The position numbers and the translations under genes are program-made. A stretch of DNA of 17,020 nt from Candidatus Undinarchaeota archaeon (GTDB lineage: Archaea; SpSt-1190; JASMDC01), in contig CAZFHY010000030.1 in NCBI GenBank assembly GCA_964519305.1, positions 1-17,020 on the forward strand, in the 5' to 3' direction. Positions 89 through 17,020 of this stretch are shown one piece after another. The number at the start of each line of letters is the position of its first letter. The first letter of the stretch is position 1. The notes beneath the pieces are model-generated. The model made no database searches. It saw only the letters and a list, made by a program, of their open reading frames with translations, and was not told the DNA's origin.

Positions 89-556
89 CTATTCCCACCG
101 CAGGACGAGGGAGCCGTCCTCAACACGGGAGGAGGGGCTGCTCGAGAACCGGGCGGGCTTCCGTACGATGGCGAAGTACCCGGTACGTTCGTCGGGGAGG
201 TGTGCCTTCACCTCGAGCGAGTGGGGAAGCTCGCGCACCTCGACCTGGGACGGATGGGAGATCCCCGGGAGGGCGATCCGGGCCTCGTATGCGTTACGCA
301 GGGAGTGCTCGAGCACCTGAGCGCTCTCGTACACTACCTCGGCCTCCTTGATGTCAACCTCCCGCGCCATATCATCGGTAGGCCCGGGCATGTCCACTTC
401 GGTCCCCATGAATGAGCGGGAGAAGTGGTTCACCGCTGTACCGAGAACGGGATCGATTACTTCTTCCTTCTCCTTGACATCATGACGTAGATCGTGAGCG
501 TACCGTAGGAGCAGGGTATCGAAGAGCCTGTCGAGCAGGTAGGCTAGAATGGTCAT
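89..556 (-). CDS. Hsp20/alpha-crystallin-like domain protein (155 aa)
   Basis: Start reassigned to ATG 556 (MTILAY): ATGA overlap with the upstream stop at 553-556 and GGTGG RBS. The C-terminal pattern (EARIALPGI..QVEVRELPHSLEVKA..YFAIV..VEDGSLVLRW) resembles the alpha-crystallin fold. Confidence 0.6.
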   Translation of the reverse strand: MTILAYLLDRLFDTLLLRYAHDLRHDVKEKEEVIDPVLGTAVNHFSRSFMGTEVDMPGPTDDMAREVDIKEAEVVYESAQVLEHSLRNAYEARIALPGISHPSQVEVRELPHSLEVKAHLPDERTGYFAIVRKPARFSSSPSSRVEDGSLVLRWE

Positions 557-1335
557 GAACCCCCCCCACCGAAGGATTGGTCGGCAAGGGTCTTGTACAT
601 CTGGTAGCGCGCCTCGGCCACCTGAGCTTGGATATAGTCGCGCTGTGAGCTCATGAATGAGGCCTGAGCGCGCTGGAGGAACTTTGCGAACATCATGAAG
701 ACGACGGCCATGGCGTACATAACCCATGTCGTGCCGCCTATCCAAGTGGCACCTTCAGCCATCATGATGTTCTTGATCGAGTCCATCACGGGCGTCAGGA
801 GCCCCAGGTCAGCGGCATAGAGCGAGGTGAGGAACACGATGGCCTTACGGGTCCGCACCCGGATGAAGGCCGGCTTGACATATGAGATCAGGTCGAAGAT
901 GATGAGATAGATGAGGCCGAAAGGCAACATGTAGTTCATGATGAACGTCTCATTGGGGAACCATCCCAGATATTTGATAATGAACCCAATAATCCAGTTC
1001 GAGACCATCAGGATACTGATGTTCGTTCCCGATGTGAGGGGTTTAAGGACAGAGAACGAGCCTGGCGTGGAGCTGACCTTGATGGCATCGCTGTGGCCGA
1101 AGGTCTCCATCACTGTAAAGAACATTATGATGAGGGCAAGAAGGTAGGTGTAGGCAGTCTCCTCCGATTCCATGATGTTGACGCCGAAGGGATTGATGAT
1201 CGTGGACCATGCCGTGACCAGAGAGCGGTACATGGTGTTGCGGTGGAGGGTCTGGAGGATGTCCGAACCCGTTTGCGCAGTAGCAGGTGTCAGAAGACAG
1301 ATAATGACGATCGCGATGAGGACGGTATCTCTCAT
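553..1335 (-). CDS. Multi-pass membrane protein with signal peptide, family A paralog (A3)
   Basis: 260 aa; signal-like MRDTVLIAIVIICLLTPATA; motif YMLPFGLIYLIIFDL...RKAIVFLTSLYA; C-terminal YQMY; ATGA overlaps at both ends. Confidence 0.85.
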   Translation of the reverse strand: MRDTVLIAIVIICLLTPATAQTGSDILQTLHRNTMYRSLVTAWSTIINPFGVNIMESEETAYTYLLALIIMFFTVMETFGHSDAIKVSSTPGSFSVLKPLTSGTNISILMVSNWIIGFIIKYLGWFPNETFIMNYMLPFGLIYLIIFDLISYVKPAFIRVRTRKAIVFLTSLYAADLGLLTPVMDSIKNIMMAEGATWIGGTTWVMYAMAVVFMMFAKFLQRAQASFMSSQRDYIQAQVAEARYQMYKTLADQSFGGGGS

Positions 1336-1670
1336 CGCACCCCGCCGTCCCCTTTGACAGCTTCCAGGAGCCTACCGATATCGTGGGTCCGAGAGGCGAC
1401 CTCCAGGCGTTTGCGAGTAATCCAGAGCTCCTTCTGAAGGATAAGTAGTCCTAGGAACGCGATGAAGGCGAAAGCCGTCACGTAGGACTCCCGTATCAGG
1501 CCGAGATGGGCTTCTTCCATTGTAGTTATCTCAGTGCCGTTGAGTACGGCGAGCGCGGTGATGATGAGCACCATCGTCCCGATAAAGGCCACCAACACGA
1601 TTACGAAGGCCAGGAGGACCAGTACGACCTCCTCGGCCTTCGAGAACTTCTTGAGCGTTTCATCGTCCAT
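1332..1670 (-). CDS. Two-TM membrane protein, family B paralog (B1, 112 aa)
   Basis: Start reassigned to ATG 1670 (MDDETL), preceded by GAGGTAGAGAAC. Two hydrophobic segments ending in LLILQKELWITR, matching LLLIARELWLIR in 3611..4114. Confidence 0.8.
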   Translation of the reverse strand: MDDETLKKFSKAEEVVLVLLAFVIVLVAFIGTMVLIITALAVLNGTEITTMEEAHLGLIRESYVTAFAFIAFLGLLILQKELWITRKRLEVASRTHDIGRLLEAVKGDGGVR

Positions 1671-1710
1671 GTTCTCTACCTCTCGAGTCCTTGATCGGGC
1701 GCGGAAGGCC

Positions 1711-2448
1711 CTAGTATCCGGCCCTCCACTTACCGAGTTGGGTCTCGGCAGCGACCTCATACATCTGGTACTGGATCGCCTTGGAAACGCGGCTTGTCTC
1801 GATGAAGAACCTGAAGATCGAGTCGAAGAAGAACCCGAATATCAGGCTGAAGAACAGCACGCTGAAGAAAATCTGCGTGAAGTCGAAGCTACTTCCGGGA
1901 CCGCCCAGGAAGTTCATCAGCCCCATGACCACCGAGAATATACCGTGGGACAGGAACACCGCGTACGCTGCAAGGCATAGCGAGATCATGTTCGCCGTCC
2001 TCGGGGTAAGGAACGTGAAGAGCAGCATCATGTCCTTGAAGATATACATCAGCACGACAAAGGGCATGAAACCATAGAGGAGGTAGAACTTGAGCTTTGA
2101 CTCCCCTGATCCGCTACCGCACGAAACCGTGCCGATCTGGCTGATGTCTGTTGCCCCTTGCACGGTGTTATGTGTCTGCTGCGGGCATATGATCTGGCCA
2201 CACACCAGGTTGATATAGATCGCACGTTCACCGGTCGCGGTGGCATATCCGAACCACCAGTGACAGTCCATCTGGGACATATACTCGTTGCCCGAGCCGA
2301 AGAGCGAGCGTGTTATCTTGCCCAATAGGCCTGTTGCTCGATTGGATACGCCCCCTTCCTTGGCGAGATCGTCCGCCAAAGGTGCCTGCGCGGGCACCAG
2401 AAGCATCAGGGACACAACTGCGATGACAATAATGGCTTTTCGGTCCAT
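1711..2448 (-). CDS. Multi-pass membrane protein with signal peptide and 4-Cys N-terminal domain, family A paralog (A2)
   Basis: 245 aa; signal MDRKAIIVIAVVSLMLLVPAQA; motif GFMPFVVLMYIFKDMMLLFTFLTPRTANMISLCLAAYA; C-terminal KAIQYQMYEV; GGAGAGGA RBS; TATA upstream. Confidence 0.85.
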   Translation of the reverse strand: MDRKAIIVIAVVSLMLLVPAQAPLADDLAKEGGVSNRATGLLGKITRSLFGSGNEYMSQMDCHWWFGYATATGERAIYINLVCGQIICPQQTHNTVQGATDISQIGTVSCGSGSGESKLKFYLLYGFMPFVVLMYIFKDMMLLFTFLTPRTANMISLCLAAYAVFLSHGIFSVVMGLMNFLGGPGSSFDFTQIFFSVLFFSLIFGFFFDSIFRFFIETSRVSKAIQYQMYEVAAETQLGKWRAGY

Positions 2449-2480
2449 GGTCCTCTCCCTGTGTTTCTAGTGCCTGACCC

Positions 2481-2497
2481 GTTATATAAACCTTGCC
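2481..2497 (-). promoter_or_regulatory. BRE-TATA promoter of the leftward operon
   Basis: Minus strand GGCAAGGTTTATATAAC, ending about 33 nt upstream of ATG 2448. Confidence 0.75.
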
Positions 2498-2708
2498 ACC
2501 TATACGGTGGTTGTTGACGGGTTAACTGCCCGGGGATATTTCCCCATAATGGGGCTTTTACTCATAATTCTTCCCTACTCGCGTCTATTGAGGGTGTTCA
2601 AATGCTCCTTGAGCGACCAGAATAGGTCTTTAAGGCGGTGTGAGGGGTGGAAAAAGGGAAATATTCTATATGGGACGGGTGTCGGAGAACGACCTACAAC
2701 CGCGCCTT

Positions 2709-2852
2709 CCGTTCAACGGTTGAACCGACATCCTTCCGATATGTGCCCTTAAGCTTATTATTGACCCTTCAATAACCATAAACTCGGCGAATGAACCGTA
2801 TTGAACCGAAATAGCAAAGATTATTCGATATAATTGTCGGTAATGAACGGTA
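2709..2852. promoter_or_regulatory. Cluster of putative transcription-factor sites
   Basis: WTGAAC(C/G)G at 2720, 2791, 2801, 2843 and inverted at 2709-2716; palindromes GTTCAAC-G-GTTGAAC (2711-2725) and TTATTGA-CCCT-TCAATAA (2758-2775). Confidence 0.5.
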
Positions 2853-2868
2853 CGTCCTTGATTTACCC

Positions 2869-2885
2869 GGCAAACTTTATATAAC
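2869..2885 (+). promoter_or_regulatory. BRE-TATA promoter of the rightward operon
   Basis: GGCAAACTTTATATAAC, followed by RBS AGGAGGTG at 2923-2930 and ATG 2939. Confidence 0.75.
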
Positions 2886-2938
2886 AAGTTCGACATTAGT
2901 GCCTACAGACGGAATAGTCTTTAGGAGGTGGATGCACC

Positions 2939-3544
2939 ATGACGAAAAATATAGCGGCAGTGGTGCTAATCGCATTGCTGCTAACGAGCACCCTCGGAAC
3001 CGCTGCGGTACGAGGGACCAGATACGCCAGGAGTGGAAGCGGCGGAAACAACGCGTTCGACAAGATTGCGGACGTGTTTGAGGATTTCGCTGAAGCTGTC
3101 TTTGGCGAAGAGACCTTTATCCAAGCTAGGTATGAGTGCAATGCTCTGGAAAGGTCGGGCTACATAATGAACGGCTCGTGCAGGGATTTCCCCCTGATGC
3201 TGTTCTTCTTCCTGATCCCGGCCATCCTGATGTTTGCCATCTTGTACGACATGTTGCTCTTCATGGGCTTCATGCGCAAGTGGACGGCTCAGGTCATTGC
3301 GTTCTGTCTGGCGATCTTCGCCGCGCGGACAGGTGCGTACTTCAACCTTGCGGTTGAGCTGACGTCGCTGTTCAACGACACGCTGGTCGCCATGATCAGT
3401 CTGCTGTTCACCATGATGATCTTCTGGTGGACGCTCGGGCACATCCTGTACGGATTCAACCTGAACAGGCAGATCCTGCACAGCAAGAACGCCATCCAGT
3501 ACCTTTCGGAGGTCGGGCGTACAATAGAAGGACGCGGGCAGTAA
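2939..3544 (+). CDS. Multi-pass membrane protein with signal peptide, family A paralog (A1)
   Basis: 201 aa; strong RBS; signal MTKNIAAVVLIALLLTSTLGTA; motif FLIPAILMFAILYDMLLFMGFMRKWTAQVIAFCLAIFA; C-terminal KNAIQYLSEV. Confidence 0.88.
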   Translation: MTKNIAAVVLIALLLTSTLGTAAVRGTRYARSGSGGNNAFDKIADVFEDFAEAVFGEETFIQARYECNALERSGYIMNGSCRDFPLMLFFFLIPAILMFAILYDMLLFMGFMRKWTAQVIAFCLAIFAARTGAYFNLAVELTSLFNDTLVAMISLLFTMMIFWWTLGHILYGFNLNRQILHSKNAIQYLSEVGRTIEGRGQ

Positions 3545-3565
3545 GTGCTCGCTCGCTTGAGCTAG

Positions 3566-3588
3566 TATATATAAAGCAGTAACACTAG
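3566..3588 (+). promoter_or_regulatory. Internal TATA promoter upstream of B2
   Basis: TATATATAAA at 3566-3575 in a GC-rich context, then CACTAG at 3583-3588 and RBS GAGGT before ATG 3611. Confidence 0.6.
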
Positions 3589-3610
3589 GCCGACGGCAGA
3601 GGTAAAGAAT

Positions 3611-4114
3611 ATGTCTGAGATACGATCGACCCGGGCCAATGAGGCAGTATCGAGGATCGAGATGGGAGAGCGAGCAGTCCAAGACCTGCTCATAGTCCTG
3701 TCAATGTTGTTCACAGGGCTCATCGCGATCAATGTAGCGTACCTGCTCATGGTCGGGGATTCGGTAGCGGATAATCCGATCACGAATATCAGCAAGACGA
3801 CGGCCGAGTATGTGATCCCGTGGGCGGGCGCCCTTGCCCTCCTACTGATCGCCCGTGAGCTCTGGCTCATTCGGATCTATATGGAGGGAATCCATATCGG
3901 ATTCGAGTTGGAGAGCATGCTTACGGAGCTCAAGCGGATCGAAGAGATCGAGATGCGTGAAGAAAAAGAGCTCGAAAAGATAGAAAAGATCGAGAAGCAT
4001 AAAGAGGAGCTTCTTGAGAGAGAAGAAAAAGAGCTCGAAAAGATTGAAGCCATCGAGCGCAAGCTCATGGAAAAAGAGGAGGCAAAGGAGAAGAAGAGGG
4101 GCCGGAAGAAATAA
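3611..4114 (+). CDS. Two-TM membrane protein with E/K-rich coiled-coil tail, family B paralog (B2)
   Basis: 167 aa; leader GAGGTAAAGAATATG; two hydrophobic helices; ELW motif; tail REEKELEKIEKIEK...REEKELEKIEAIERK. Confidence 0.85.
   Translation: MSEIRSTRANEAVSRIEMGERAVQDLLIVLSMLFTGLIAINVAYLLMVGDSVADNPITNISKTTAEYVIPWAGALALLLIARELWLIRIYMEGIHIGFELESMLTELKRIEEIEMREEKELEKIEKIEKHKEELLEREEKELEKIEAIERKLMEKEEAKEKKRGRKK
3959..4044 (+). repeat. Intragenic 23-bp direct repeat at 63-bp spacing
   Basis: GAAGAAAAAGAGCTCGAAAAGAT at 3959-3981 and 4022-4044, giving a 21-aa (3-heptad) period. Confidence 0.9.
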
Positions 4115-4171
4115 ATCCGACCCCTCCTCCCCTTCCCTTGAACCTCCTCGGCAACAAGGAGGATGTGAAGG

Positions 4172-4690
4172 ATGACGGAAATCGATCCCGCTGTCGGCAT
4201 GCTGGTAGAACTGGGTTTCTTCCAGTATGTCCTGCCCTTTATCCTGATGTTCGCCGTCTTCTACGGCGTTCTTAGGAAGGCGCAGGTGTTCGACCGCGAT
4301 AATATCAATGGGACCATCGCCTTCGTTGCCGCCGCGTTCACCCTGTACTACGCTTATCAGATGGAGATGCTACAGGATCTGCTCTCACACTTCATTGCGA
4401 ACGTAGGACTTGTCCTACTGTTCATCCTGTTGGCTGGGATGGTATCGACCTTCCTGTTCAACATCATGGACAGCTTGAAGATCGAGGGTAAACTCCTCCG
4501 TATACTGATGTTCATGGCGATTTTTATGTTCATACATAAGATCGCTGCGGAGTCAGGTATGATGGAAGCAATACTCCCTGACAGTGCTGGTGCCGATGAG
4601 GATACCGTAACAAGCCTCTTCGTCATCATCATGGTGATTTACGGGATATCGTGGCTGGCTGGCGAGGGTCCGAGTGCACAGGGGGCATAG
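4172..4690 (+). CDS. Multi-pass membrane protein without signal peptide, family A paralog (A4)
   Basis: 172 aa; RBS AGGAGG at 4157-4162; motif GFFQYVLPFILMFAVFYGVLRKAQVF..NINGTIAFVAAAFTLYY; about five hydrophobic segments. Confidence 0.88.
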   Translation: MTEIDPAVGMLVELGFFQYVLPFILMFAVFYGVLRKAQVFDRDNINGTIAFVAAAFTLYYAYQMEMLQDLLSHFIANVGLVLLFILLAGMVSTFLFNIMDSLKIEGKLLRILMFMAIFMFIHKIAAESGMMEAILPDSAGADEDTVTSLFVIIMVIYGISWLAGEGPSAQGA

Positions 4691-4693
4691 ATT

Positions 4694-5002
4694 ATGGCAC
4701 CAAGCTTTGGATATATGGTTGAACGACTTCAGGAGGTAGGATTCTTCAATTTCTTCCTGTCCTATCTCTTAGTGTTCGCCGTGTACTACGGAACATTCGT
4801 GAAATCCCGTGTGTTCGGGGAGAAGACGGACGCATTGGGTGCGATCATCGCCATAGTGGCGGCGTTCTACACCATGTACTATGCGGCAAACTACCTGGAC
4901 TTGGCGGCGCTCTTGGGCAGCTTCATGCCACGATTGGGCATTGTGCTGTTCGCGATCGTGTCCATGTATCTCGTAGCGAGCCTGGCCACAGGGGGTGACT
5001 AG
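4694..5002 (+). CDS. Three-TM membrane protein, family A paralog (A5)
   Basis: 102 aa; GFFNFFLSYLLVFAVYYGTFVKSRVFGEK..LGAIIAIVAAFYTMYY aligns by eye with the N-terminal part of A4; starts 3 nt after the A4 stop. Confidence 0.85.
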   Translation: MAPSFGYMVERLQEVGFFNFFLSYLLVFAVYYGTFVKSRVFGEKTDALGAIIAIVAAFYTMYYAANYLDLAALLGSFMPRLGIVLFAIVSMYLVASLATGGD

Positions 5003-5004
5003 AT

Positions 5005-5181
5005 ATGTCAATGTCTAACAAGATCTCTGGAATCATCGCAGTCGTGGTAGTCATGATATTGTTCATGACGAGCCCGGGCGCTGATCAGATCATTCCCTTC
5101 GGCTCAGGAAGCATCGAGGCCATGGTCATGCTGCTGGTCATGGGAGTGGCAGTGATCTACATAATGGAAGATCACTCGTAG
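5005..5181 (+). CDS. Small two-TM membrane protein (58 aa), absent from the ORF track
   Basis: Hand translation: MSMSNKISGIIAVVVVMILFMTSPGADQIIPFGSGSIEAMVMLLVMGVAVIYIMEDHS*. RBS GGGGGTGA at 4991-4998; starts 2 nt after the A5 stop; terminator follows. Confidence 0.75.
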   Translation: MSMSNKISGIIAVVVVMILFMTSPGADQIIPFGSGSIEAMVMLLVMGVAVIYIMEDHS

Positions 5182-5206
5182 GACTACGCGACCGGATGGT
5201 CTAACA

Positions 5207-5246
5207 ACGGGTCCCCCTTTCGGGGGGCCCGTATTTTGTTTTATTT
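5207..5246 (+). terminator. GC-rich hairpin followed by a U-rich tract
   Basis: ACGGGTCCCCC-TTTC-GGGGGGCCCGT (11-bp stem with one G-U), then ATTTTGTTTTATTT, between convergent genes. Confidence 0.7.
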
Positions 5247-5287
5247 CCCTAGTATCCCGGCAGTACTCTTTACTTTTCTGGATATCT

Positions 5288-8200
5288 CTATCTGCCGTGT
5301 CCGCCCTGTTGTTGATACTGGTAATAGCCTTCCCGAGTATACCACTGCGGTGGATAGTAGTTATAGAGGAAGTATGAGTCCTGTGGATAGCGTGGTCGTC
5401 GATGGCGTTTAACTGCCCTATTGATGAATAGCATTGCCATCGCCAGGAACAGCATGATCTCAATGGTGTCCTTGAGGTCAAGGAGCACCCTCAGAGGGCT
5501 GTCTTCAAGGATGTGTGCAATGAAGCTCTTAGAGCTCACAATAACGATCGTGGTCTCGGTGAGGGGTCGTTTAACACTTCGGGGGGACACCATCAGGGTG
5601 ACCCTGTACTCTCCTGAAGGTGCTGATGTGATCGATGTATCGATCTCGTAATTAAGTCCCGGGGACAGCTCGATGGTTCTGTCCTTCTCTTCACCGTTGA
5701 TCGATGACCTGAGCTTGATATCGTAGGTCTCCTTCACGTTCCCTTGATTCTCGATGAGGAATGACACACGGATGGGATCACCTTCCTTTGCCATCTCCTC
5801 GGGCTTAGCATCGATATGGGTGCGACAAGAACAATCATCAGAGTTCTGGCAGCTCTCGCCAATATTCGTCTCGCACACACCGTTCTCGCAGTCGCCGGGA
5901 GCACAGTCCTTAGGGCATTTTCCGCATTCTTCTGAATTGCATGTGCCATCCCCACAGGAGAGTGTGCATGAGTGGGTCGCCGTGTTGCATTTGTAATCAG
6001 GGGGGCATTTACAGTCCTCACAACAGGTCACTGAACTCTCATCGGGGCTGTCACAGAAATTGTCCCCGCATTTGATAACATAGCATCCTGACATAATTGA
6101 GTGCTTCCGCTTGGGCTTGCAGATTGATCCTCGCTGGCAGAGGCAGTCTTCTGCGGTAACGGCGCAATCCTCCCCCATCGACGGCTCACAATTACTGTTC
6201 CCCAGACAATCATCGGGAGTGCAGTCCTCCGGGCAGATCGTACATTCGTCCTCGCATAGTCCATCGCCACATATAGTTGACGCGCATGTACCATCTGCGC
6301 ATCTCAGCCCTGACACGCACATATCGGGGCATGTGCACGATGCGTTCACCTGGCCGAGCACATCGCACCTGCCCTCGCCATCGCATACCTTTCCGGTTCC
6401 GCAGACATGACCGCATTGCAGGAACTCAGTAACACAAGCAGTCCCGCTCCATCTGTCCTGCGTACAGTTGTTATCGTCGTCACAGAGCGGATTCTCCCGC
6501 TCGCTTGCGTCGGGTACGGGCCCGAAGAGAGGATAAGGCGTCGTGAACAAGAGGTCATCGATCACGTCATACGCCGCGAGATAACCAAGCATTGCTATAC
6601 CTTGTGCTCCTCCGTTCTCACAGTTCCAGGCATCCTTTCCCGATGCTCCTCCTAGTCCACACGATGATGATTCTGTAAGACTGAGGAGATACCGTCGAAA
6701 TGGCATCTCACAGAGCTCCCAGGGGATGGTGAACTCCCGTGAGCATATCTCAAGGGCCTTTGCATAGGCCATCATGGCCTCCCCCTGCGCGGATGGCTGA
6801 TCGCAATCCCAGTCGCCTTCAGTACGCTCTGCTGAAGCGGGGCCACATCCGAAAAGCGGATTGATGCGGTCCACAGAGCCTTTTGCGCATCGGATAAGGA
6901 ACTCCTGACAGAACGGCCCCTCGGATGGTACCTCTATGAGCTCACATGCACGGGCATACGCAAGCGTGAGCACGAACTCTGAGGAAGTGAAGATATCTGA
7001 GAGCCCGATGGCCGAGACGACCTCGTGCTGCAATTGGCTGGTCACGATCTCGTCAATCCCGCCCAATCCAAGGTCGCGGAGATGGGTGCAGAATGGTCCG
7101 GTGACCTTTGGTAGTTCCAGGAGATCGCATCCTCTTGCATAGGAGAGCATGAGCAGACCCTGGGCCACCTCGTCGCGACACCAGAGCCCGATCTGAGTGC
7201 GCCAGCAGTCGAGCGTATCATTGGCTTTGAGCACCGTGGAAAGATGCGTGCAGAACGCGCCGTCCCCGCGCCCACCGTCCAGGAGCTCACAGGCCTCAGC
7301 AAATCCAAGCGCGAGCATGGCATGTGTCTCCGGGCTCTCCTCGGGTGCGAACAATGCCGCTGCTTGCTCGGCCATATACTTGAGCGCGGTACAATACTCT
7401 GATTCGGTACCAAAGATCCGACAGGCCTGGCCATACATGACCATCATGGTGCCCTGGGCGAAGGCAGTGTCGCACTCCCAATCGTCCATCCCCTCGGATG
7501 TGTCATCCCGCATACCGCACCCGCAGTCCGTACAACCATAGGCCGTCGAGTAACCGCGCAGGAGCCGCTTGGATGCCTCGCATGACGGATTCTTTACCAT
7601 GGGGTCGAGTTCTTCGCAGGCCTTGGCCATGGCGATGGCGGAGGAGGCCTGCTCCCAGGCGCCACCACAGTCCCAATCATCGCCGTCATCCGCAGTACCG
7701 TCCCCCATCCCACATCGGCCCGACTCGCTCCCGGCCCCGGTGTCCGCCATCAGGGAGAGCGCTTGGCAGTATTGCTCCTCCGGCTTCGCCCGGCAACCTG
7801 ACGCGTAACCCTGCATAAGGAAACCGGCGTCCCTGATTCTATCGGGACCACAGTTCCATATATCATCGTGACGATGGGCTTCACCGTTCGGGCCTATGCC
7901 GCACGGAGTGTCCTTGAGGCGGGCGATGTACTTTGCTTCTTCGCACCCCTTCCCGAATTCACTACAGAGGGGGAAGAGCACTCGCATGAGACGACCGGCC
8001 ACCTCGCCCTGCGCACACTCATCAAGGCCGCATACGGGCTTGGTAAGGGCGATCAGGTCGAAAAGACGCAGGCAGTGTTCGCCTGCAGTATCGTTCTTAT
8101 CGAGTATGATACATGCATCCTTGTACGCATCCAGTAGGGAAACAAGCTCGCGGGGATCGTCTGTGGTCCGGTCCTCCGCGACTGCGGCCTTGAGTACCCC

Positions 8201-8899
8201 GCAAGCGTCAACAGAACCCAGGTCACATGCTTGGGCCAGACCCTGTATGAGGTCCGAATGGTGCTCGATGGATGGGAAGCCCGCTCCAGATGTCCTGGTG
8301 ATGTGGTCGTCCACCACTTTGAAGAGGTTGCTACACACATTCTTGTTCTCGGTGGCCGAGCATGCCTCGCCAAGGGCGGACATAACAGCCCCTACGGTCG
8401 CATTGCGGGAGCATTCATCGTACTGCTCGCACTTCACAATGAGGGTTGAGGCGTACAGGATAGTATTGTTGCACTGTTCGCCACCAAAGGCGCGACAGAA
8501 CCGGGCTGCAGCACGAACCAGACCGGTCTGTGTATCAAGATACGTGCACATGGGATTTTCCGGGCCGCATCCGCAGCCTTCGCATCCATCCCGCTCGGTG
8601 GAGCCGGCCTCTAGCAGGAGCTTAGCGGCGGAGCAATATGCTGCACTGCCAAGTGTTACGCAGGCGTCCATGTACCCATTGAACATAGGGAGTTGGGCCT
8701 CCTCGATGCCTGTGCACACCCAATCGTCCCCGAGGTCCGCCTTCCCGTCCCCGCCCATACCGCAACCTCTGAAATCGCTGCCTGCTCCCCCGACACTGAG
8801 TTGTACTACAGCTCGTTCAAGCTCATCGAGCTCAGCGATCGCTGTCGCCGAGGTGAGCACGAGCACGAGCACGACCGCTGCCAATAGATCATCCCTCAC
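5288..8899 (-). CDS. Large Cys-rich, C-terminally membrane-anchored cell-surface protein (1203 aa)
   Basis: GTG start with GAGGTGA RBS; signal peptide; about 14 Cys-paired helical repeats; CDDDNNCTQD and three CGD(G/N)xC..C(P/C)xDC modules; CARDB/Ig-like segment (VSFLIENQGNVKETY); TM helix, basic KRHRRPR, and a Tyr/Gln/Pro-rich tail. Confidence 0.9.
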   Translation of the reverse strand: MRDDLLAAVVLVLVLTSATAIAELDELERAVVQLSVGGAGSDFRGCGMGGDGKADLGDDWVCTGIEEAQLPMFNGYMDACVTLGSAAYCSAAKLLLEAGSTERDGCEGCGCGPENPMCTYLDTQTGLVRAAARFCRAFGGEQCNNTILYASTLIVKCEQYDECSRNATVGAVMSALGEACSATENKNVCSNLFKVVDDHITRTSGAGFPSIEHHSDLIQGLAQACDLGSVDACGVLKAAVAEDRTTDDPRELVSLLDAYKDACIILDKNDTAGEHCLRLFDLIALTKPVCGLDECAQGEVAGRLMRVLFPLCSEFGKGCEEAKYIARLKDTPCGIGPNGEAHRHDDIWNCGPDRIRDAGFLMQGYASGCRAKPEEQYCQALSLMADTGAGSESGRCGMGDGTADDGDDWDCGGAWEQASSAIAMAKACEELDPMVKNPSCEASKRLLRGYSTAYGCTDCGCGMRDDTSEGMDDWECDTAFAQGTMMVMYGQACRIFGTESEYCTALKYMAEQAAALFAPEESPETHAMLALGFAEACELLDGGRGDGAFCTHLSTVLKANDTLDCWRTQIGLWCRDEVAQGLLMLSYARGCDLLELPKVTGPFCTHLRDLGLGGIDEIVTSQLQHEVVSAIGLSDIFTSSEFVLTLAYARACELIEVPSEGPFCQEFLIRCAKGSVDRINPLFGCGPASAERTEGDWDCDQPSAQGEAMMAYAKALEICSREFTIPWELCEMPFRRYLLSLTESSSCGLGGASGKDAWNCENGGAQGIAMLGYLAAYDVIDDLLFTTPYPLFGPVPDASERENPLCDDDNNCTQDRWSGTACVTEFLQCGHVCGTGKVCDGEGRCDVLGQVNASCTCPDMCVSGLRCADGTCASTICGDGLCEDECTICPEDCTPDDCLGNSNCEPSMGEDCAVTAEDCLCQRGSICKPKRKHSIMSGCYVIKCGDNFCDSPDESSVTCCEDCKCPPDYKCNTATHSCTLSCGDGTCNSEECGKCPKDCAPGDCENGVCETNIGESCQNSDDCSCRTHIDAKPEEMAKEGDPIRVSFLIENQGNVKETYDIKLRSSINGEEKDRTIELSPGLNYEIDTSITSAPSGEYRVTLMVSPRSVKRPLTETTIVIVSSKSFIAHILEDSPLRVLLDLKDTIEIMLFLAMAMLFINRAVKRHRRPRYPQDSYFLYNYYPPQWYTREGYYQYQQQGGHGR

Positions 8900-8910
8900 T
8901 CCATATCACC

Positions 8911-9867
8911 TCACGAGTGGGATTGGCCGGCCTTATCGGCCAGTAAGGCCACCTCACGCAGTGTTACTCCCTCTTGGGAGAGGAGGTCGTTGAGCTCTTT
9001 CCAGGATGTCATTTGGCCACCGTTCAGGGATGCTTCCAGCTCCCGAGCCAGCGGGTGCTCTGATGCGACAATGTGCGGACCGATCCTGGGCGAGGCTTGG
9101 AGATAGAGCAGGCGGACTGCCTGCATCCCGCCCAAGACGGTGATGTCGCTACCGGTCACCAGGATACGGAGGCGCTCGGCGCTGATGAGCACGATGGGTC
9201 CCAGCGCTCTACCCAGAAGGGCTACCGCCAGCCGCATGACGGTCGACGGAGCTTCCTGAGAACGTTCGCTGGCCACGATGTATAGCGGAGGTGTACCGGT
9301 GGCACGCATACCATCTGAGAGAGCATCTGCGAGACCATCAAGTGTCATGGGGCGAGCGGGGATGTAGAACACGTCCTCTGCTTCCGCGCCCATGACAGAG
9401 CGGAGCGCGCCCACGACAGTGGAGAATATGAGCAGAATACTCACGCCGAGCCAGTGGAACATGGCCGTCATCCCCCGGAACACAACGAGGCCGACGTCGA
9501 TTGCGGACGCGTCGTCAAGGAACTCCCTGAATGCACTGAAAGCTTCGCCGCTCTCGGTAGGGGAACGCGGCATATAGCCGTGCTGTTCCTGGAACAAGGA
9601 GAGCGAGACCACGACGATCCCCATCAACGGAGGTGCGAGAAGGAGGATGATCGTACCTACCGTGGTCCCGATAACAGGGATGGGCAACGTGGCGAAACGG
9701 TAGAATGGGCCTATCCGGGGTAGCGTGGCTGCATTGGGGATGTAAGGGATGAGCAAGAGCGTGAGCCACAGGGTGGACACCGCAAGGCTAATCTGCATGA
9801 GGCGGGATGAGTCGCGTCGATGTATGAGTGCTGACGTATAGAGACGCACCCAATCAAGAAACCCCAT
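8911..9867 (-). CDS. Uncharacterised membrane protein (318 aa), probably co-transcribed with the large surface protein
   Basis: About three N-terminal hydrophobic segments and a more polar C-terminal half; GGGAG RBS; its stop overlaps the RBS of the next gene. Confidence 0.75.
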   Translation of the reverse strand: MGFLDWVRLYTSALIHRRDSSRLMQISLAVSTLWLTLLLIPYIPNAATLPRIGPFYRFATLPIPVIGTTVGTIILLLAPPLMGIVVVSLSLFQEQHGYMPRSPTESGEAFSAFREFLDDASAIDVGLVVFRGMTAMFHWLGVSILLIFSTVVGALRSVMGAEAEDVFYIPARPMTLDGLADALSDGMRATGTPPLYIVASERSQEAPSTVMRLAVALLGRALGPIVLISAERLRILVTGSDITVLGGMQAVRLLYLQASPRIGPHIVASEHPLARELEASLNGGQMTSWKELNDLLSQEGVTLREVALLADKAGQSHS

Positions 9868-13654: not shown

Positions 13655-14443
13655 TTAACCGAGAACGCTCTTCATGTGGTCGTTCGGCTGCGCGTACTGG
13701 ACCCCGCCCCAGTACCACGTCGTTGCGATTGCCTGAGCAGGGCAGTGATTATAGCATGCCCAGCAAGTATAGCACTTCCTCATCGAGAATATGGGCTTCG
13801 GTCCGAAAGTGATGGCGTCATATGGGCATACCTTTGCGCATGTTCCACACTCGGTGCAGCGCGAGGCGTCCAAGGAGTACCTACCCGTGTTCAGGATGGC
13901 TATAATCCAGGGGATACGTGGTACGAAGCGGTATTTACCTGCATCGAACTCCCGTCCTTCGACCGTACCGCCCTGTGCGATGGTGCTGACGCACCTGTCA
14001 AGCTCGGTGATGAACGCGTTGAAGGTCTGCATCTCCTCAACATCGGGGTGGTCCTCGGCACCATGACCGGCAGCGATCATAGGGGGGTAGCTCTCCGGTG
14101 TATGAAGTGAATGACCGGCAAAGACCGTACACCCGCGGTCCGTTGCGAGCCTTGACATGGTCTTGAGGGTCTTTCCGCTGGAGAATCCGTAGGTATTGAA
14201 CACGAACGCGGGCATCCCTTGCCACGGTCGGAGCTCTTGGATGAACCGTCGCATCAGGGGGGGCGGTTCCCATGAGTCCGTGAACGTGGCCAGTCCGATG
14301 ACGTAGTATTCACCGAGGTCGGGGACGCCGTCCGTAGCTATGTTGAAGAGGTCGAAGGAGCAGTTCGTGATGTTCTTTGTGATGTACTGGGATGCGAGCC
14401 GTGTATTACCGGAGCCCGAGTAGTAGCAGATTACGCCCCGCAT
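13655..14443 (-). CDS. EFR1-type flavodoxin / 2x[4Fe-4S] ferredoxin fusion, copy 1
   Basis: YYSGSGNT flavodoxin loop, PESYPP, CTECGTCAKVCP and CYTCWACYNHCP; start ATG 14443 with TTAATAAA about 30 nt upstream (likely leaderless). Confidence 0.9.
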   Translation of the reverse strand: MRGVICYYSGSGNTRLASQYITKNITNCSFDLFNIATDGVPDLGEYYVIGLATFTDSWEPPPLMRRFIQELRPWQGMPAFVFNTYGFSSGKTLKTMSRLATDRGCTVFAGHSLHTPESYPPMIAAGHGAEDHPDVEEMQTFNAFITELDRCVSTIAQGGTVEGREFDAGKYRFVPRIPWIIAILNTGRYSLDASRCTECGTCAKVCPYDAITFGPKPIFSMRKCYTCWACYNHCPAQAIATTWYWGGVQYAQPNDHMKSVLG

Positions 14444-14517
14444 ACGGTCCCACAGCGCCCTGCTTTTTATTAATCCATTTCGATGACGTCGTCGAACGTC
14501 TGGCGGACCACACAAGA

Positions 14518-15312
14518 TCAGGATTTCAGGACCCGACGCACATGCTCGTTCGGTCGAGGGTAACGTCCGTCGCCCGTGAACCTCCCTGCTAGGATAGCGC
14601 CTTCAGGGCAGTGGTTATAGCAGGCCCAACAGCTCTGGCAGAGATTCTCATCGAACACCGGTGTAGGATCGAGATCGATGGCCCCGTACGGGCAGATCCG
14701 GGCGCACACTCCGCACTCCTTACAACGGCCCTCATCGGCGACCTTCTTACCTATTGACGTGAAGCCGAGGGATCGCGGGAACGGCGGGAGGAGCGTGTTC
14801 AAGAGACCGATGTCCGGGTGGTGGTGGGGGCACGATCCATCGTCCTTGACCTGCCAGAGACGTAGGTCCAATTCGGCGATGAACCGGTCAAAGGATGCCA
14901 TTTCTGACTCGTTCGGGTGGTCTTCGTTACCATTTCCCGATACAATCATTGGGGGATAGTTTTCGGGCATGTGGAGAGCGTGTCCACCGATGACCGTGAA
15001 CCCTTGCGCTGTAGCAAGCTCGTCAAGCCTCTTGAGGGTCTTCCCACTGATGAATCCGAAGGTGTTGAACACGAACGCAGGAATCCCATCCTGGTTAGGA
15101 ATCCCCTGGATGAACGCCCTCATCAGGGGCGGTGGCGCCCATGCGTCCGTGAACGTAGCAAATCCGACGACGTCACATTCCTCCAAGTCAGGCGTGGCGT
15201 CCTTGGTGATATCGACCAGCTCCAGCTGACAGGTGGTGATCTTGGAGGCGAGATATGTGCACGCGTGCTTAGTGTTGCCCGATCCTGAATAGAAGCAGAT
15301 GATGCCCTTCAC
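14518..15312 (-). CDS. EFR1-type flavodoxin / 2x[4Fe-4S] ferredoxin fusion, copy 2
   Basis: FYSGSGNT, PENYPP, CKECGVCARICP and CQSCWACYNHCP; start taken at GTG 15312, which aligns with the paralog start, with TTAATA 28 nt upstream. Confidence 0.9.
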   Translation of the reverse strand: MKGIICFYSGSGNTKHACTYLASKITTCQLELVDITKDATPDLEECDVVGFATFTDAWAPPPLMRAFIQGIPNQDGIPAFVFNTFGFISGKTLKRLDELATAQGFTVIGGHALHMPENYPPMIVSGNGNEDHPNESEMASFDRFIAELDLRLWQVKDDGSCPHHHPDIGLLNTLLPPFPRSLGFTSIGKKVADEGRCKECGVCARICPYGAIDLDPTPVFDENLCQSCWACYNHCPEGAILAGRFTGDGRYPRPNEHVRRVLKS

Positions 15313-15336
15313 TGGGATGCGTTCCTTGGGCAAATA

Positions 15337-16692: not shown

Positions 16693-16750
16693 CACTGTTC
16701 ACTATTGGTTCTACTTACAGAATCAACAATGAATCGAGAAATGATAGCGT

Positions 16751-16784
16751 GATCGGGAACGGGGTAATACCCTCGCTCCCGATC
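16751..16784 (-). terminator. Stem-loop downstream of the coiled-coil gene
   Basis: GATCGGGA...TCCCGATC outer stem with an imperfect inner stem, about 15 nt past the stop at 16800. Confidence 0.55.
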
Positions 16785-16799
16785 TTGCACGTTCTGCGC

Positions 16800-17020
16800 C
16801 TAGGTACCCTTCAAATCCTTTTCGATGGCGTCAAGGGCATCCTTGAGGTCTCTGATGGTCGATTCGAAGGAGATCTCGCGCTTCTTAGCATCAGCATCCT
16901 TCTTCTCCAGGTCGTCCTCAAGGTCCTTGATGCGCTTAGCGTCCTCTTCGTCCTTCTTCTTCAGATCGTCCTCAAGGTCCTTGATGCGCTTAGTGTCCTC
17001 TTCGTCCTTCTTCTTCAGAT
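16800..17020 (-). CDS. 3' end of a charged coiled-coil repeat protein (partial)
   Basis: Hand translation: LKKKDEEDTKRIKDLEDD LKKKDEEDAKRIKDLEDD LEKKDADAKKREISFESTIRDLKDALDAIEKDLKGT*; open to the window edge. Confidence 0.8.
   Translation of the reverse strand, partial: LKKKDEEDTKRIKDLEDDLKKKDEEDAKRIKDLEDDLEKKDADAKKREISFESTIRDLKDALDAIEKDLKGT
16911..17020. repeat. 54-bp coding tandem repeat (at least 2 copies, runs off the window)
   Basis: Units 16911-16964 and 16965-17018 differ at 2 of 54 positions. Confidence 0.92.

Follow-up and report, generated by a model that had tools for sequence, protein, structure and literature searches.

A divergent cluster of small membrane-protein genes in Undinarchaeia and its possible link to a type IV filament-like machine of DPANN archaea

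DPANN archaea live attached to other cells. FlaI/FlaJ-like genes are known in these lineages and, according to the accessible parts of two reports, have been proposed to serve host interaction (PMC6642349, PMC8784108). In the accessible portion of a 2026 survey, DPANN genomes are described as seldom having an ordered type IV filament locus; the ATPase and the platform gene occur together, and the pilins and system-specific parts are scattered (PMC13705601). Here, we describe a nine-gene cluster in two divergent operons (positions 89–5181) from a marine DPANN-type archaeon of the Undinarchaeia. The stretch analyzed, hereafter called the window, comprises 17,020 nt at the start of contig C30 of a 3.63-Mb assembly with 42 contigs (G000). 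Eight of the genes encode membrane proteins, named A1 to A5, B1, B2, and S, which may be accessory subunits of a type IV filament-like machine, and the ninth encodes a soluble protein, H. A sister genome of the same genus (G001) and further Undinarchaeia genomes, among them G003, G005, and G011, were used for comparison.

Other membrane proteins of unassigned function have been reported in type IV filament loci (PMC4858521, PMC5898192, PMC6393860), none of which, in the accessible parts of these papers, has the features of the A, B, and S families. Tomography has revealed attachment and docking structures of DPANN cells to which, in the accessible text of the two reports, no genes are assigned (PMC11420986, PMC11329633); a term search of the accessible main text of PMC11420986 returned no mention of ATPase, pili, gene cluster, or membrane protein.

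Gene layout and two membrane-protein superfamilies

All nine open reading frames (ORFs) of the initial annotation were recovered at the same coordinates from the ORF list and by independent translation, confirming the divergent cluster as a whole. The two arms leave a 490-bp control region (2449–2938). The left arm (− strand) consists of A2 (1711–2448), B1 (1332–1670), A3 (553–1335), and H (89–556), and the right arm (+ strand) of A1 (2939–3544), B2 (3611–4114), A4 (4172–4690), A5 (4694–5002), and S (5005–5181). By a crude hydropathy count, each of the eight proteins described as membrane proteins does carry 2–6 helices, and H (155 aa) carries none and is soluble. The junctions had been said to be mostly ATGA overlaps or very short gaps. 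Two ATGA overlaps are present, one between the ATG of H and the stop of A3 and one between A3 and B1, and the A4/A5 and A5/S gaps measure 3 and 2 nt, but the word “most” was an overstatement; the other gaps are 40, 66, and 57 nt. None of the nine proteins gave a meaningful match in Pfam or NCBIfam, and the statement that no enzyme or ATPase family is represented among them was upheld by these searches.

The A1-type proteins A1 (201 aa), A2 (245 aa), and A3 (260 aa) match their family profile with E 9.0e-49, 7.7e-47, and 4.7e-34, respectively, and A3 was also joined to the family by jackhmmer. A1 combines a signal peptide with a short ectodomain containing two Cys residues and with a core of three helices, A2 has a signal peptide and a Cys-containing ectodomain ahead of the A core, and in A3 a signal-peptide-like N-terminus is joined to the core of the family, MLPFGLIYLIIFD.... 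The core follows the pattern LPxxxLxxxIxxDxxxxxGFFRxxTA, in which the Asp, D104 of A1, is invariant. A4 (172 aa; E 2.0e-44 against the A4-type profile) spans the full length of the A4 type, its five membrane helices being preceded by an amphipathic helix at the N-terminus; in the family, the amphipathic helix is followed by GF(F/Y)xxxLPFLLxFxIVFGxL. B1 (112 aa) has two to three membrane helices, the last of them followed by the motif (K/R)ELWxxR, and its start at 1670 is backed by the ORF being open in the sister genome. B2 (167 aa; E 1.8e-52 against the B2-family profile) has two helices, the motif RELWLIR, and a Glu/Lys-rich repetitive tail. The tail (window 3917–4112) is built of imperfect direct repeats, EKELEKIEKIE..., spaced 63 nt apart in the DNA (D1, D2, D10), and is missing from B2 homologues of other genera.

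Paralogy among the A genes and between the B genes, as proposed in the initial annotation, is real and old as judged by profile comparison. Plain BLASTP connected A4 with A5 clearly (E 1e-14) and A1 with A2 weakly (E 4.6e-5), and the B1–B2 comparison was not significant. Iterated profile searches over the ORFs from 14 related loci divided the A proteins into two families, A1/A2/A3 and A4/A5, that were connected by weak cross-matches. By hhalign, the A1-type alignment (25 sequences) matched the A4-type alignment (28 sequences) over the first two helices (72%, E 3.4e-5), and the B2 family matched the B1 family (87%, E 3.6e-6), with RELWxxR after the last helix in common. Five cross-family controls (A vs B, and A vs the platform protein introduced below) reached 0.1–7.8%; therefore, membrane composition alone does not explain the A and B positives. 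These comparisons point to two superfamilies, A (A1/A2/A3 with A4/A5) and B (B1/B2). Conservation within them is low, with a mean column identity of 17–23% in the A1-type and A4-type alignments, and A1, A2, and A3 are mutually 17–22% identical.

A5 (102 aa) matches positions 1–98 of the 176 in the A4-type profile, that is, the first three helices only. The downstream S (58 aa, two helices) corresponds to the last two helices; the S family (9 sequences) aligns with the A4-type family over 59 columns at positions 115–176 of 185 (hhalign 80%, E 1.3e-5). Since A5 covers the first three helices and S the last two, the pair looks like a split A4-type gene, and the split is kept in all nine Undinarchaeia loci examined. 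In G011 (locus L021, 6989–7489; G011:C29:9988–10482), the A5 and S homologues lie in one frame with a single TAG between them, unlike those of the window, which are in different frames. This in-frame TAG could be the original fission point or a read-through site.

Distribution and an ATPase neighbourhood in other lineages

The families were mapped over 251 archaeal genomes, 17 of them Undinarchaeia, with a cut-off of E≤1e-4 for the A4-type profile. A4-type proteins (about 170 aa) were found in 65 genomes, or 62 after three single, weak, partial matches of about 70 residues in larger or other genomes (G145, G183, and G230; E ~5e-5) were set aside as chance. There are 2–7 copies per genome, and the hosts have genomes of 0.5–1.6 Mb, except for the genus of the window (3.6–3.8 Mb). 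The statement in the initial annotation that proteins of the LPFxLxFA type stand in tandem in DPANN genomes was thereby borne out, both by the profile matches and by the tandem copies. A1-type proteins occur in all 17 Undinarchaeia genomes (1–6 matches each), with one weak match among the other 234. The B2-type profile matched 6/17 Undinarchaeia (families f1 and f4), the one genome of family f9, and 10/11 genomes of the distant family f24, and outside the class its matches always lie directly beside an A4 array. Because B2-type genes adjoin an A4 pair in both f24 and f9, B-A4-A4 looks like an old unit, of which B2-A4-(A5|S) would be the Undinarchaeia form. Within the class, the order A..(B)-A4-A5-S was kept in 9/9 loci examined.

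The genome size of the window's genus is an observation in its own right. Both its assemblies are several-fold larger (G000 being 99.8% complete with 4.3% contamination) than the 0.6–1.2 Mb of the other 15 genomes of the class, within a lineage known for reduced genomes. Also seen within the class is an orphan gene of ~630 aa between the divergent arms of G003, G005, and G011 (L017 3227–5113, L018 9963–11861, and L021 3481–5412), with 6–10 membrane helices, long low-complexity loops, and no Pfam match; these queries did not detect it in the window or elsewhere in G000, and the 490-bp control region shows no remnant of it.

In relatives with small genomes, as in other lineages, what comes after the A4 array is a pair of coiled-coil genes on the opposite strand, a gene for a FlaI/TadA-like ATPase, and a gene for a putative FlaJ/TadC-like platform protein. 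The ATPase (~760 aa) has an N-terminal extension of ~300 residues, matches PF00437 (T2SSE) above the cut-off, and has a mean column identity of 64% over nine distant genomes; its best NCBIfam match is FlaI (106 bits, with an equivalog cut-off of 550), followed by TadA. In 64 of 80 loci, the gene after that of the ATPase encodes a polytopic protein of ~700 aa. Traces of T2SSF are visible in this platform protein, with 5 of 32 aligned members matching PF00482 (best E 4.2e-6); for the copy in G000 there was no match.

Two sets of loci were used to assess this synteny. The first comprised 45 non-Undinarchaeia genomes with listed A4 positions, whose coordinates were compared by hand. The array lies ≤5 kb from the ATPase in 34 of them, representing 17 families, mostly at 1.1–2.6 kb; in one genome the distance is 12.5 kb, and in ten the array is on another contig. 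The second consisted of 80 named public loci drawn through the ATPase, 53 of which have at least 4 kb of upstream DNA. A same-strand A4 array was found ≤5 kb upstream in 33/53, with a median gap of 1314 bp and with three genes in 29 loci, two in 2, and four in 2. These positive loci are labelled Woesearchaeota, Nanoarchaeota/Nanoarchaeia, and Nanohaloarchaea, and an array is also present in an Aenigmatarchaeota locus with <4 kb of upstream DNA. Some ATPase contigs are labelled “uncultured Methanosarcinales” and one with a full-length ATPase (L093) “Armatimonadota bacterium”, which are probably binning or labelling errors.

The coiled-coil gene pair was seen at many ATPase loci, for example at L021 7600–8765, L017 7847–9287, and L036 3–919. 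One gene of the pair encodes a coiled-coil protein of ~130 aa; the product of the other (245–345 aa) begins with a small helical domain (..QQGxSDxQIIQxLQ..) and ends in a coiled coil, the two being joined by a linker rich in Pro and Gly. Both proteins are cytoplasmic and without a family match.

No T2SSE-family ATPase was found in the 17-kb window. The earlier remark that no ATPase is visible is thus true for the window, but the usual neighbour of the family is an ATPase, which in G000 is located with its platform and coiled-coil genes at the start of another contig (C2:1045–3348 for the ATPase and 3353–5533 for the platform).

Known parts of such machines were also considered as identities for the A proteins. 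That they are mini-platforms was rejected, with either A family reaching 0.1–0.2% in hhalign against the platform. A prepilin peptidase of the FlaK/PibD/TadV kind, which has two conserved catalytic Asp residues, the second of them within a GxGD motif, was rejected for A4, given an A4-type alignment that is near-invariant at Met1 only. No peptidase family matched the A4-type proteins, and a presenilin-family chain at Z 6.8 is within the noise for helical models. The A4 model compared with 48,161 Protein Data Bank (PDB) representatives gave a best Z of 7.2 to generic helical hairpins only, and no fold was assigned. Profile searches of the PDB with the A4-type, A1-type, and platform alignments found nothing below E 0.09, and in the ESM Atlas the nearest clusters are all archaeal “hypothetical protein”, with every structural match at TM <0.5. 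A complex prediction for the platform with an A4-type protein scored 0.00; it was run without controls and counts neither way.

Control region, expression, and competing explanations

The near-identical promoters noted initially were verified. The 17-nt core GGCAANNTTTATATAAC occurs exactly twice in the window (0 expected), at 2481–2497 (−) and 2869–2885 (+), and when a 16-mer of it is allowed ≤1 mismatch, five copies are found in the 3.6-Mb genome, the only exact ones being these two, which an inverted repeat (I3) sets in front of both operons. The left copy GGCAAGGTTTATATAAC is archaeal TATA-box-like and lies ~35 nt before the start of A2; the right copy GGCAAACTTTATATAAC lies ~55 nt before the start of A1, which is also preceded by the ribosome-binding-like site GGAGGTG (2925–2931). 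Compared with the sister genome, the control region shows 88% identity, and ~80 nt at either end are nearly invariant. Between the promoters, at 2709–2851, the word TGAAC[CG]G occurs five times; the palindrome GTTCAAC-G-GTTGAAC (GTTCAACGGTTGAAC) is part of this array. The words, upstream of the right promoter, are kept in the sister genome amid DNA that has diverged, which makes the array a candidate operator for a regulator. An 81-aa ORF at 2507–2752 sits in the least conserved part and was taken as non-coding. The two arms are probably co-regulated; since the proteins are so dissimilar, the shared core is better read as a sign of co-regulation than as a relic of duplication.

Parts of the stretch are carried by four metatranscriptome runs from three studies. 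A 2341-nt RNA-library contig from a related strain (~93% identity) runs unbroken over 2917–5191, the entire right operon included, a run of the second study covers 3180–4356, and two contigs of the third, with at least 99% identity, cover 3318–3591 and 3802–3981. Short contigs were also found on A2, and one spans the B1/A3 junction (1317–1467). No RNA-library contig fell on 2380–2916, on 1–1316, or on several other parts, where missing cover is not evidence. The right-operon contig starts at 2917 in two runs of one study, beside adapter-like letters; this position is a lead for a transcript start, although contigs cannot show ends. The cover as a whole supports expression but does not prove it.

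The explanation we prefer, with moderate confidence, is that a type IV filament-like machine of DPANN archaea has the A, B, and S proteins as accessory membrane subunits, a set expanded in Undinarchaeia. The two divergent and probably co-regulated operons encode small integral membrane proteins of two old superfamilies, A, with an A1-type branch (signal peptide, ectodomain, and three-helix core) and a five-helix A4-type branch, and B, with two helices and the RELW motif; a genus-level Hsp20-fold protein is encoded as well. A small B-like protein and two to four tandem A4-type proteins constitute a module of several DPANN lineages, in most of which it is placed 1–2.5 kb upstream of the ATPase, the platform, and the two coiled-coil proteins. 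We suppose that A, B, and S are embedded around the platform as a ring, stator, or conduit, with the A1-type proteins as class-specific, surface-exposed additions. The genes, their paralogy, the distribution of the family, the synteny, and the cover by RNA-library contigs are established, and a tie to the ATPase machine, physical as well as functional, is supposed, as is any role in contact with hosts or surfaces. The envelope role of the secretion or contact type suggested in the initial annotation, whose interpretation is partly supported overall, fits the conserved neighbourhood of a T2SSE-family ATPase and a T2SSF-like platform elsewhere. The conserved, unannotated tandem membrane proteins beside that motor in many lineages provide a concrete candidate part list, and profile models are now at hand for three or four families outside the public family libraries.

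Several observations weigh against this explanation. The gene neighbourhood is the sole functional evidence, and A, B, and S resemble no known type IV filament component by sequence or fold. The cluster is not beside the ATPase in G000 or in G001, where the contig with the cluster continues into unrelated genes, and the two are adjacent in only 2/16 Undinarchaeia with the family (G003 and G011); therefore, the linkage is dispensable. In the second set, 20/53 loci have no same-strand array ≤5 kb upstream, although in one of these an array lies on the opposite strand, 7 kb downstream. No A4 match was obtained in about ten genomes that have the top-scoring ATPase class, and an entire second ATPase class (~750 bits) is without A4-type matches. 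Moreover, RNA libraries may contain DNA, and their contigs cannot prove a single transcript.

The strongest competitor, which we consider possible though not probable, is a self-contained membrane complex, such as a small channel or transporter of several subunits or a membrane-shaping assembly, that works independently of the ATPase, the adjacency reflecting shared regulation or an envelope “island”. The separation of the cluster from the ATPase in 14 of the 16 Undinarchaeia with the family, the window's genome included, agrees with this, as do the cluster's own promoters with their specific common core, and comparable archaeal membrane-protein cassettes have been tentatively given a role in membrane remodelling in the accessible text of PMC5898192. 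However, the array keeps its position, strand, and spacing with respect to the ATPase over the 17 families (34/45) and in the 33/53 independent loci, which is hard to explain without a functional tie, and no transporter family was matched by the nine proteins or the A4-type members. If the link were only regulatory, the families would still be a widespread part of DPANN “dark matter”, for which an operon structure, a promoter, and a candidate operator are now defined.

The preferred reading can also be made more specific: B, the A4-type proteins, and S would be the membrane core of a DPANN-specific machine driven by the conserved FlaI-like ATPase, perhaps the attachment organelle, docking barrel, or cytoplasmic-bridge apparatus that cryo-tomography has revealed, so far without genes, in cultivated DPANN archaea. 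Undinarchaeia would have elaborated this machine with surface-exposed A1-type subunits under a dedicated, co-regulated promoter pair. In this detailed form it is doubtful.

Tandem paralogues that occur in several copies and evolve fast, next to a highly conserved motor, recall pilin genes, and a Gly-Phe-Phe/Tyr motif stands directly ahead of the first helix, so that the A4-type, A1-type, and S proteins might be the cargo or building blocks of the ATPase machine, as unconventional, multi-helix “pilin-like” subunits of a surface or intercellular structure. This is unlikely. A class III signal peptide consists of a short, positively charged leader, a [KRDE][GA] cleavage site, and a single hydrophobic helix. 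In the A4-type, A1-type, and S alignments, the leaders are uncharged and amphipathic and 2–5 membrane helices follow, and such a signal peptide or pilin was rejected; the residue before the conserved Gly of A4-type proteins is hydrophobic or Gln, not charged, and a protein of five membrane helices is unlike any extractable pilin.

The original interpretation was an inverted duplication of a promoter-A-B-A cassette giving a hetero-oligomeric pore or contact complex with a dedicated Hsp20-like chaperone, and it now appears improbable. The mirrored A/B paralogues, the common promoter core, and the Hsp20 fold of H agree with it, and a left arm of the A-B-A type is also found in G005 and G011. The two arms are indeed mirrored in A-B, but the third genes belong to different subfamilies, A3 being A1-type and A4 being A4-type, and the ancestral unit appears to be B-A4-A4 beside the ATPase. 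The duplication itself cannot be shown from paralogues as divergent as A1, A2, and A3; a tree built from 25 A1-type proteins leaves the two arms unpaired, and its deep forks are not resolved (51/41), so it neither supports nor rejects an ancient duplication of the cassette.

As to the chaperone, the assignment of H is right at the level of fold only, as judged from a predicted model. H begins with a helix, continues through a disordered linker, and ends in a beta-sandwich of the alpha-crystallin (Hsp20) type; in the AlphaFold2 model, built from five sequences, residues ~70–155 form eight strands with a predicted local distance difference test score of ~90. Foldseek of this model against the PDB returned 24 matches with E≤0.001, the top ranks being alpha-crystallin domains of small heat-shock proteins. 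The best is that of Sulfolobus solfataricus Hsp20.1 (4rzk_A; E 1.2e-4, TMt 0.72, root-mean-square deviation 2.7 Å over 87 columns), which has the same beta-sandwich as the last 85 residues of H in the predicted model. hhalign of H against an alignment of eight Hsp20 domains of the same class gave 60% (E 8.7e-5), and the register LPG...NG-L is common to Hsp20 proteins and H. Unlike Hsp20, H stops at the last strand without a C-terminal extension and is below Pfam detection, with no match at E≤0.1, PF00011 included, and none in NCBIfam; PF00011 also failed to match three H relatives and a 91%-identical homologue, and a PDB sequence search with H alone found nothing. A genome-wide PF00011 scan returned two ordinary Hsp20 genes elsewhere but not H, whose N-terminal helix and linker are unlike theirs. 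An exhaustive search of 1.84 billion representatives yielded five relatives of H, and among the 14 loci it was found beside the cluster only in the sister genome; H is therefore not a conserved part of the system, and its confinement to the genus and a handful of sequences speaks against a dedicated chaperone.

That the genes are lineage-specific, fast-evolving orphans without joint function, or mobile-element remnants, is very improbable, for although they match no annotated family, have a mean column identity of only 17–23%, and lie in an unusually large genome of the genus, their order is kept in all nine Undinarchaeia loci, the frames are intact in two genomes 88–97% identical, RNA-library contigs cover genes of the cluster, and no repeats or mobile-element genes were seen flanking it.

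Flanking genes and comparison with described systems

The right operon ends at a terminator-like hairpin (5208–5246), GC-rich GGGTCCCCC-TTTC-GGGGGGCCC followed by T runs, between S and a convergent gene at 5288–9867 (−). This gene encodes a cysteine-rich protein of 1203 aa with a signal peptide, a C-terminal anchor, a Tyr/Gln-rich tail, and a weak CARDB match (E 5.5e-4), and it is followed by a 318-aa four-helix orphan. The pair occupies the same place in the sister genome and was not seen beside the cluster in other loci. Farther on, two tandem paralogous genes (13655–15333, −) encode proteins of 286 and 271 aa; by eye, the N-terminal half of each is flavodoxin-like, and each contains two CxxCxxCxxxCP motifs. 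At 16749–17018 (+), a frame running off the window end contains the unit LQVVLKVLDALSVLFVLLLQ twice; it could belong to a repeat region or be open by chance. No tRNA genes or Rfam families were found in the window.

No description of the five-helix tandem, the RELW two-helix, or the split A5|S family was found in the accessible literature, and the supplementary tables of PMC13705601, PMC4858521, and PMC8204110 may list them under arCOG or family numbers. The cassettes described by Makarova, Galperin, and Koonin in 2015 (arCOG01996/arCOG02054/arCOG09673; PMC5898192) are comparable, as far as the accessible text describes them, in consisting of three to four genes for small, fast-evolving proteins of 3–6 helices, sometimes near an ATPase and S-layer-like proteins, and in having a function predicted by context only, as here. 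They differ in carrying SpoIIM (PF01944) and Yip1 (PF04893) domains, neither of which was matched by the nine proteins (E≤0.1) or by the 28 A4-type members (E≤0.01), and in that their ATPase is AAA+, not T2SSE.

The archaeal type IV filament loci known as “system 2” in the accessible part of PMC13705601 likewise have an ATPase with a long N-terminus and a single platform gene, as do the usual neighbours of the A4 arrays. Unlike type IV filament loci, the window has no ATPase, platform, or prepilin peptidase, and no class III signal peptide is visible in its A, B, and S proteins. In the archaellum, the FlaF/FlaG stator and the FlaX or FlaC/D/E ring are non-filament subunits, associated with the membrane or the motor and encoded beside a FlaI-type ATPase, which is the role proposed here for A, B, and S. 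FlaF and FlaG each combine a single membrane helix with a beta-sandwich, in contrast to the five-helix polytopic A4-type proteins, with which they share no similarity in sequence or fold; a further likeness to the archaellum is the presence of two coiled-coil proteins between the A4 array and the ATPase.

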